Source: an uncultured archaeon (GTDB lineage Archaea > Micrarchaeota > Micrarchaeia > Micrarchaeales > CABMGC01). From it: 64,000 nt of DNA. Below are positions 13,904-14,290 of this stretch, piece by piece. The stretch is taken from NCBI GenBank assembly GCA_963752955.1, contig CAVWAD010000007.1, positions 64,386 through 128,385 on the forward strand. Reading direction: 5' to 3'. Below the pieces are notes generated by a model. That model saw only the letters and a program-made list of their open reading frames with translations, had not been told where the DNA came from and did no database searches. Numbering within the stretch: the stretch's first letter is position 1; each line of letters opens with the position of its first letter. The translations under genes were made by a program, and so were the position numbers.

Positions 13904-14290
13904 ATGAACTTTGGCAAACTCAGGCTGGTCCTGTACCTTCTGGTATTCGTAAACATAGCTACGCTGGTCATGCCTCTGACTGCCGATTCGACCAACTCGG
14001 TCACCAACGCGCTCACCTCGCAGCTCTGCGGGATAGTCGGCTCGGTGCGCACGATAGTCGGTGTGCTCGCGCTCACGCTCTTCCTAATAGGCGGGGTCCT
14101 CTTCGCGGTTTCGCACTTCCTGCCCACGAACCTCGAGTTCAAGAAGAGCCTTACGGTCTGGTCGCAGGGCATGATAATCGGGGGCCTGATAGGGCTGATC
14201 ATAGTCCTGATAGCGCAGCCGATAATATCGCTCATAACCCAGATCGGCACGTCAGCGGGCGGCAGCAGCATAGCCGCGATAACGTGCTGA
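13904..14290 (+). CDS. small secreted two-helix membrane protein, TrbC/VirB2/CedA1-like pilin candidate
   Basis: 128 aa. Sec-type signal (..LVMPLTA|DS), then hydrophobic helix 1 (IVGVLALTLFLIGGVLFAV), a short polar loop (HFLPTNLEFKKS) and helix 2 (GMIIGGLIGLIIVLIAQPIISLI). This is the architecture of conjugative-type pilins. The functional call is an inference. Confidence 0.45.
   Translation: MNFGKLRLVLYLLVFVNIATLVMPLTADSTNSVTNALTSQLCGIVGSVRTIVGVLALTLFLIGGVLFAVSHFLPTNLEFKKSLTVWSQGMIIGGLIGLIIVLIAQPIISLITQIGTSAGGSSIAAITC

Follow-up and report, generated by a model that had tools for sequence, protein, structure and literature searches.

A candidate VirB2/TrbC-like pilin gene at the head of a conserved chromosomal gene cluster in Micrarchaeota

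The window analysed here is a stretch of 64,000 nucleotides from the genome of an uncultured archaeon of the Micrarchaeota (assembly GCA_963752955.1, contig CAVWAD010000007.1, positions 64,386 to 128,385 of the forward strand). At positions 13904..14290 (+) of this window lies a gene for a pilin-like protein of 128 amino acids, reading from ATG to TGA, which opens a tightly packed string of genes on the same strand that ends in a P-loop ATPase. Hydropathy revealed three hydrophobic segments in the protein. First, the N-terminal MNFGKLRLVLYLLVFVNIATLVMPLTA, directly followed by DS, has the n-h-c organisation of a Sec-type signal (residues 1-25/27, nt 13904-13984), with a cut predicted between ...VMPLTA and DS. 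Second, helix 1 spans approximately residues 43-73 (31-72 in an AlphaFold2, or AF2, model). Third, helix 2 covers approximately residues 82-115 (77-118 in the model), and is separated from helix 1 by the polar, basic loop HFLPTNLEFKKS at residues 71-82. The C-terminal tail is a stretch of Gly, Ser and Ala whose last residue is Cys128. The AF2 model, obtained with 27 homologues, thus consists of a signal helix (residues 3-25) and a helical hairpin, with a mean predicted local distance difference test score (pLDDT) of 72.6 and values of 75-88 within the hairpin. The open reading frame (ORF), the hydropathy profile and the model, together with the alignment of homologues that defines the feature, agree with the layout of Sec-type signal, two helices, polar loop and Gly/Ser tail that an earlier note had proposed. 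A Sec-type leader, two hydrophobic helices forming a hairpin and a short basic loop, all within a small precursor of ~70-130 amino acids, are present in the 128-aa protein, as they are in the TrbC/VirB2 (PF04956) and T4SS_pilin (PF18895) families of type IV secretion system (T4SS) pilins.

A BRE/TATA-like (B-recognition element and TATA box) promoter element, AAAAAGGTATTTTAAATAG, was recognised by sequence reading upstream of the gene at 13855..13873 (+). The motif aaAGGTATTTAAAta is found 33-45 nt 5' of the ATG in nearly all of the 17 orthologous loci inspected, and this recurrence at a similar distance implies that the pilin-like gene has its own conserved promoter, as had been suggested from a TATA-rich tract at about 13853-13872.

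The pilin-like gene is real and under selection. A profile built from 27 close homologues of the 128-aa protein (A1) retrieved 365 representative clusters at E≤1e-3 from a library of 1.84 billion proteins, and 118 diverse relatives share a clear signature, namely, C42 in 76%, Y67 in 94% and a C-terminal Cys (C128) in 96% of them; position 80 is basic in all but one of the 118 (117). Further signature positions are G63-G64, A68, P74, W/Y86, M90, G93-G94, G97 and A104-P105. Since Cys42 and Cys128 would both be located on the outer side of the hairpin, a disulfide joining its two ends seems likely. With regard to architecture, 152 of 176 representatives are small proteins with a single module; 19 have an N-terminal ectodomain of more than 100 aa followed by one C-terminal hairpin module; and five contain 2-7 tandem pilin modules in one polypeptide.

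The tandem-module relatives are P0028 (1071 aa), P0029 (632 aa; related locus L005, 10001-11899), P0045, P0090 and P0139. Each of their modules is flanked by conserved cysteines, and those of P0028 and P0029 come after an N-terminal extracellular domain. These proteins could be polyprotein precursors or, alternatively, membrane proteins of 4-14 helices made of pilin hairpins. In L005, the gene for P0029 is followed on its 3' side by genes for three large proteins, each with a pilin module at the C-terminus, and by another small pilin gene, and then by homologues of the 281-, 423-, 395- and 502-aa cluster genes of the window, which are described below. Elsewhere, two adjacent pilin genes stand at the head of the cluster (L021, L022, L024, L027, L036 and L039, at ~9.2-10.9 kb in each locus, except for L022, at 4.4-5.4 kb), and in two genomes (L012 and L015) an extra stand-alone copy with an N-terminal extension is located away from the cluster.

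The affiliation of this family with T4SS pilins emerges from profile searches with its members. At the permissive cut-off of E≤10, the 27 close homologues match PF04956 (TrbC/VirB2) in 21 cases, PF18895 (T4SS_pilin) in 19 and Yip1 in 19. Among the 118 wider relatives, PF04956 and PF18895 are the commonest Pfam families, each matched by 32 sequences at E≤0.01, and the lowest E-values for the two families are 1.3e-7 and 1.4e-6; the next family is matched by six, and Yip1 by one. Two relatives exceed a curated gathering score with coverage of the full-length profile: P0117 for TrbC (29.2 versus 27.9 bits) and P0115 for T4SS_pilin (26.8 versus 26.6 bits). Both of them are retrieved by the A1 profile at E ~1e-12 from the 1.84 billion proteins, and P0117 is also linked to the window protein by BLASTP (E=1e-12, 34% identity) and to the A1 profile by hhalign (97.7%).

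These matches were contrasted with reversed sequences. None of ten reversed relatives matched a pilin family at E≤0.1, versus eight of ten forward sequences at E≤0.01, and a hidden Markov model (HMM) of TrwL type, after the VirB2 pilin of plasmid R388, gave up to 20.4 bits on sequences of the family and no more than 5.4 bits on reversed ones, which speaks against an artefact of composition. R388 TrwL itself ranks second in the PDB for the profile of the wider family (A2), with a non-significant E-value of 0.44, and the alignment is in register over G-I-A-Y-A-G and W-S-I-G-V-I-I-A-G, so that the motifs G-x-x-Y-A and W/Y-x-x-G-M/I-I-x-G-G are common to both. A search with a TrwL fragment found three close sequences only. 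The transitive link and the marginal passes of curated thresholds indicate that, at the level of sequence, the family is probably homologous to the TrbC/VirB2 - T4SS_pilin superfamily.

The genes that follow in the string, all on the forward strand, provide the context for this affiliation. Directly 3' of the pilin-like gene, a conserved position, is a gene for a polytopic membrane protein of 640 aa (14297..16219), whose C-terminal part is extracellular and which has no Pfam or NCBIfam match. It is followed by a 145-aa soluble protein (16287..16724), recognised by ORF and synteny in the closest relatives only, for which we obtained just a weak and non-significant match to TraD (E=0.033), and by a conserved membrane protein defined by synteny (16759..17604). 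The ORF of the latter has 281 codons; since its orthologues measure ~242-250 aa, the true start is probably near 16852. No link was found between this 281-aa protein and the polytopic paralogues that come next.

These are six related polytopic proteins of 338-502 aa, assigned by alignment of the six-member family: paralogue 1 (423 aa, 17619..18890), paralogue 2 (~395 aa, 18899..20084), paralogue 3 (502 aa, 20077..21585), paralogue 4 (427 aa, 21593..22876), paralogue 5 (338 aa, 22873..23889) and paralogue 6 (360 aa, 23899..24981). Paralogue 2 is frameshifted in the window, and its reconstruction aligns over the full length with intact orthologues. All six have the core motif LRxFxFxRxxGGxxIAxGIxxxLxYP in common. 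An alignment of these proteins from the window and two related loci (A3) found nothing relevant in the PDB, and an AF2 model of paralogue 5, based on six sequences, was of unusably low quality (pLDDT 43). At its N-terminus, paralogue 2 has a two-helix hairpin that resembles the pilin-like protein (hhalign of the pilin profile, 92.7%, E=4.4e-7), with the motif Y-A-x-x-x-F-L-P present in both; likewise, the A2 HMM matches paralogue 2 orthologues with E-values of 4.5e-6 to 8e-5, and the ORF in the window with E=0.0012. CedA1 has been reported to resemble the N-terminus of CedA in a comparable way, as has VirB2 with respect to VirB6 (PMC9905601). The six paralogues are candidates for a VirB6/CedA-like platform.

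The string ends with two membrane-anchored proteins and the ATPase. The former, of 276 aa (25024..25854) and 273 aa (25866..26687), are conserved just 5' of the ATPase gene and each consist of N-terminal transmembrane helices and a cytoplasmic domain; they have no family or PDB match and are not detectably paralogous to each other, and might conceivably represent N-terminal domains split off from a VirB4. The latter, 12.4 kb downstream of the pilin-like gene (26729..28236), is split over three reading frames in the window. After correction of frameshifts, the joined protein of 501 aa aligns free of gaps and with 93% identity to a 501-aa orthologue (P0182), and it belongs to the HerA/VirB4 class of P-loop ATPases, with the Pfam domains DUF87/HerA-central, AAA_10 and P-loop_TraG above their cut-offs. 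Its best NCBIfam matches are CedD (1.4e-20), CedB (1.6e-18) and the VirB4-like CD1110 (2.1e-17), next to which come the VirB4 of a mycoplasma integrative and conjugative element (6.8e-17) and then HerA, all with scores far under the equivalog cut-offs. In the PDB, it matches HerA (7e-11) and a VirB4 (2.5e-7). Among its best 120 matches, nearly all of them Micrarchaeota-type proteins, orthologues are 72-93% identical to it, whereas orthologues of the pilin in related genomes are 33-65% identical. The ATPase is therefore far more conserved than the pilin, which suggests that it is under strong constraint.

On the 5' side, a MoxR-type AAA+ ATPase (12927..13835, +; Pfam AAA_3, AAA_lid_2 and bpMoxR) is a conserved neighbour that adjoins the pilin-like gene in most loci. 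No VWA-domain partner for it was found among the neighbouring genes scanned, and it may be either part of the system or an instance of the conserved gene order of small genomes. A polytopic membrane protein with a DUF2079 domain is encoded further upstream (11269-12843); in L001, a protein of this type is encoded on the opposite strand (12328-13887, -), between the genes for proteins of 643 and 243 aa. The 640-aa protein has no detectable relation to the DUF2079 protein (hhalign 3%).

The order of genes from the pilin to the sixth polytopic paralogue recurs in ~25-30 metagenome-assembled genomes of Micrarchaeota. The full string through the ATPase is found in L001 and L044, and in another two loci the string extends as far as the genes immediately 5' of the ATPase. 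Housekeeping genes surround the locus, namely, those for pelota, TBP, L21e and Rpb4; these neighbours, and the names of the records of homologous proteins, agree with an origin in Micrarchaeota, a DPANN phylum. No relaxase, coupling protein or other DNA-processing domain was detected in any of the cluster genes scanned, and no VirB3, VirB8 or VirD4 appeared when they were compared with Pfam and NCBIfam. Furthermore, relatives were not found in viral contigs, which speaks against an origin from a provirus or mobile element. Taken together, the lack of a relaxase and of a coupling protein, the housekeeping neighbours and the lack of viral relatives lead us to read the cluster as a chromosomal core system rather than as a mobile element.

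The region 3' of the ATPase appears to have been rearranged in the window. Five conserved genes (~99, 118, 245, 51 and 781 aa), in which no informative Pfam domain was found, lie directly 3' of the ATPase in L043 and L044; the gene order in these two loci and tblastn against the window place the same block 24 kb off and on the opposite strand (52750..56853, -). An inversion spanning roughly 28.3-56.9 kb could explain this displacement; its putative breakpoints are not marked by inverted repeats. The G+C content is 0.51-0.56 in parts of the DNA between the ATPase and the displaced block, compared with 0.60-0.63 in the cluster. In this intervening DNA, a long, 946-aa low-complexity or coiled-coil protein is encoded at 31114-33954 (-), with a J-domain-like motif (YYGVLGI...HHPD) near residue 720. 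In L043, which is a complete chromosome of 853 kb (OY969902.1), a DDE transposase is encoded directly 5' of the ATPase (9039-9902), and a distance of over 100 kb separates the ATPase and its downstream genes from those for the pilin and the polytopic paralogues. This arrangement implies that the cluster can be split without loss of an intact ATPase.

Based on these results, we favour the reading, with a probability of roughly 0.6, that the 128-aa protein is a divergent VirB2/TrbC (T4SS) pilin, encoded by the first gene of a chromosomal, relaxase-less, Ced/Ted-like apparatus derived from a T4SS and present across Micrarchaeota. The T4SS-type pilin candidate of the earlier note is thus supported by the family profile matches, the transitive link, the reversed-sequence controls and the context of ATPase and polytopic genes. 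In the scheme that we infer, which covers signal cleavage and the disulfide as well as polymerisation, the binding of lipid, the cargo and the direction in which it moves, the precursor would be exported by the Sec pathway and cut by signal peptidase I after ...LTA, leaving a mature protein of ~100 aa that would sit in the membrane as a helical hairpin, with both ends outward and the HFLPT..K/R loop on the cytoplasmic side. Cys42, just before helix 1, and Cys128 would probably form a disulfide that clamps the ends of the hairpin. Pilins of the P-type TrbC and Ti-type VirB2 kinds undergo head-to-tail cyclisation, of which such a clamp would be a non-covalent-backbone analogue. The HerA/VirB4-class ATPase would then work with the two membrane-anchored proteins and the six polytopic paralogues to extract the pilin from the membrane, and the extracted subunits would be assembled, probably with bound lipid, into a tube or short conduit whose lumen would be lined by the near-invariant basic residue of the loop.

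In a host-dependent archaeon with a reduced genome, such a device would most plausibly serve to exchange DNA, other macromolecules or lipids with other cells, the host among them, much as Ced and Ted serve for import. The chromosomal position among housekeeping genes and the lack of a recognisable relaxase or coupling protein make conjugation proper unlikely; by analogy with Ced, Ted and the T4SS of Patescibacteria, exchange with other cells is more likely than plasmid conjugation.

Several observations weigh against this reading. First, taken alone, the window protein has no significant match in Pfam, NCBIfam or the PDB. It aligns with TrbC (residues 7-109 to positions 10-96 of the 98 of the profile) at E=2 and with 9.1 bits, short of the gathering score of 27.9, and no Pfam family matches it at E≤0.1. 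Second, no significant pilin was found in PDB searches with the single sequence, the A1 profile and the A2 profile, and hhalign against a single TrwL-like sequence returned probabilities of 7-14%. Third, Foldseek of the AF2 model against the PDB gave a best E-value of 2.4 with no pilin in the top 50, which is weak evidence either way because a two-helix hairpin is a poor query for a fold search. Fourth, the polytopic paralogues, searched as the A3 alignment, have no TrbL/VirB6 match in Pfam, and the scores of the ATPase do not separate VirB4 from HerA. Fifth, in the 19 representatives with a large ectodomain, the hairpin could be a membrane anchor rather than a polymerising unit. The earlier note had named the lack of both profile and structural similarity to VirB2-like pilins as a ground for rejecting its proposal; similarity by profile was found at the level of the family, and the structural comparison by Foldseek yielded nothing significant. 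The PDB searches with the single sequence and the two profiles retrieved no CedA1 or TedC chain at E≤10, a null result that carries little weight, given that the components of Ced and Ted have no recognisable sequence similarity to each other (PMC9905601).

Also to be counted on this side are three single-base frameshifts in the cluster, two in the ATPase gene (near 27143 and 27447) and one in the gene for paralogue 2 (near 19348-19359). The flanking reading frames are fully conserved, from which we conclude that the frameshifts are either assembly errors or very recent, inactivating mutations. Several other long genes of the window (609-1258 aa) are intact, and L006, a second assembly of that strain, is visibly riddled with indels.

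The most serious rival, which we still regard as unlikely, accepts the homology to T4SS pilins but not the extracellular filament. In it, the 128-aa protein would be a membrane-resident subunit of a translocon, or form a very short stub that reaches up to the S-layer, and would act like the two-helix partners of CedA2/VirB3 type or like the N-terminal hairpin of VirB6/CedA. A membrane-embedded building block would fit the occurrence of a pilin-like hairpin at the N-terminus of a polytopic paralogue, and the presence of this module in tandem and at the C-terminus of large surface proteins; moreover, the T4SSs of the FATA class in monoderms have been described as having no VirB2-like pilins (PMC12102498). 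A subunit made in high copy number, on the other hand, is what would be expected from the separate, conserved and consensus-like promoter on a small first gene and from the duplication of the pilin in several genomes, and CedA1 and TedC, which have a similar architecture, do form pili (PMC9905601).

Rather improbable, in our view, is that the hairpin is a generic module for membrane anchoring or export, with a convergent likeness to T4SS pilins, and that the 128-aa protein is a minor scaffold or regulatory relative. Such a module would account for the representatives in which it follows a large ectodomain, for the three large proteins with a C-terminal module in L005 and for the stand-alone, N-terminally extended second copies outside the cluster in L012 and L015. 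It sits poorly with the predominance of small, single-module proteins, with Pfam matches that are specific to pilin families and disappear on reversal of the sequence, and with the fixed place of the gene at the head of an ATPase cluster. Finally, an unrelated small membrane protein of SecE/Sec61-gamma, holin or Yip1 type, matching pilins by chance through its hydrophobic composition, is very improbable. The NCBIfam match to SecE (residues 74-106, E=4e-4), which we rejected as the likeness of a single transmembrane tail, scores 20 bits against a cut-off of 86, and SecE itself crosses the membrane once and lacks a signal peptide. Apart from a weak PDB match to Sss1 (E=0.71), this leaves the Yip1 matches of the close homologues, which dwindle among the wider relatives while those to the two pilin families persist. 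The pilin matches, moreover, are lost on reversal of the sequences, and two relatives pass curated pilin thresholds.

The favoured VirB2/TrbC-type pilin can be compared with several known systems. As in TrbC/VirB2 systems, the pilin gene is linked to a HerA/VirB4-class ATPase. In contrast with them, the host is archaeal, the window protein itself remains below threshold, the six paralogous polytopic proteins lack a VirB6/TrbL match, and a conserved pair of cysteines flanks the hairpin, which to our knowledge is not a feature of VirB2 or TrbC. Patescibacteria have chromosomal, relaxase-less T4SSs with arrays of VirB2 (PMC12102498), and the Micrarchaeota locus resembles these in being chromosomal, in lacking a relaxase and in carrying tandem pilin copies in some genomes.

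The closest archaeal counterparts are CedA1 of the Ced system (Sulfolobales, Aeropyrum) and TedC of the Ted system (Thermoproteales), in both of which, as here, a pilin with two helices is encoded on the chromosome next to a VirB4/HerA-like ATPase and one or more polytopic proteins (PMC9905601). TedC has a cleavable leader of signal peptidase I type, such as is predicted for the window protein (PMC9905601); the resemblance of the pilin to the N-terminus of a polytopic partner recalls CedA1 and CedA; and the best NCBIfam matches of the ATPase are to Ced proteins. Nevertheless, there is no detectable sequence similarity to any CedA1 or TedC chain in the PDB, the phylum belongs to DPANN and not to Thermoproteota, and there are six polytopic paralogues rather than one or two. 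Other differences from Ced and Ted are that the ATPase is a bare domain of 501 aa with two separate membrane-anchored proteins encoded upstream, that the hairpin has a putative Cys clamp, and that multi-module polyprotein variants occur in relatives.

With archaeal type IV pilins, the window protein has in common that it is a small hydrophobic protein and, presumably, a subunit of a surface filament. An example in the window is a 939-aa protein (4424-7243) with a class III (type IV pilin) signal, ...RAQSA followed by MEYLTTYGWSILIIAVVIG, a C-terminal domain rich in glycine and six Flg_new_2 repeats, which resemble the InlB B-repeat; judged by its sequence, it is a large surface protein that is pilin-like but belongs to another filament system. 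Characteristic of type IV pilins are a short basic leader, a cut by prepilin peptidase and a single N-terminal hydrophobic helix, none of which is found in the 128-aa protein; its Sec-type leader and two-helix hairpin instead indicate that it is not a member of the type IV pilin family. The class III signal of the 939-aa protein makes the contrast in topology that the earlier note had drawn between the two a valid one.

So far, the only conjugation-type, VirB2-like pili of archaea with structural documentation are those of the Thermoproteota systems Ced and Ted (PMC9905601), and we found no description of a T4SS-like system in Micrarchaeota or DPANN in the literature searched. Cryo-electron tomography of Micrarchaeon ARM-1 and its host revealed intercellular nanotubes, which were ascribed to the host, and a 21-nm barrel-like docking complex in the ARM-1 envelope where the nanotubes dock, whose components are unidentified (PMC11329633). 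It is tempting to speculate, and we do so tentatively, since we consider this wider proposal doubtful, that the pilin and its cluster are a T4SS-derived machine core to episymbiotic Micrarchaeota, which would serve as a conduit or docking apparatus on the DPANN side for DNA, proteins, lipids or metabolites moving between symbiont and host. The cluster is a reasonable candidate for the symbiont-side components at the docking sites of ARM-1.

If this proposal holds, the cluster would correspond, in archaea, to the T4SS that Patescibacteria carry on the chromosome without a relaxase, and would provide a molecular candidate for the 'pili-like connections' of ARMAN and for the 21-nm barrel-like complex of ARM-1. 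Polypeptides with 2-7 pilin modules would represent a way of making pilins, a 'polypilin' route, that has not been described before. For the physical exchange of material between DPANN archaea and their hosts, this locus supplies named candidates in a phylum with cultivated representatives, namely, a pilin, a very highly conserved ATPase and six membrane proteins of channel type, and the question thereby becomes directly testable by proteomics, immunolabelling and subtomogram averaging. The parallel between bacteria of the Candidate Phyla Radiation and DPANN archaea would also be extended, as both of these ultra-small, episymbiotic radiations would have a chromosomal, relaxase-less derivative of a conjugation machine.

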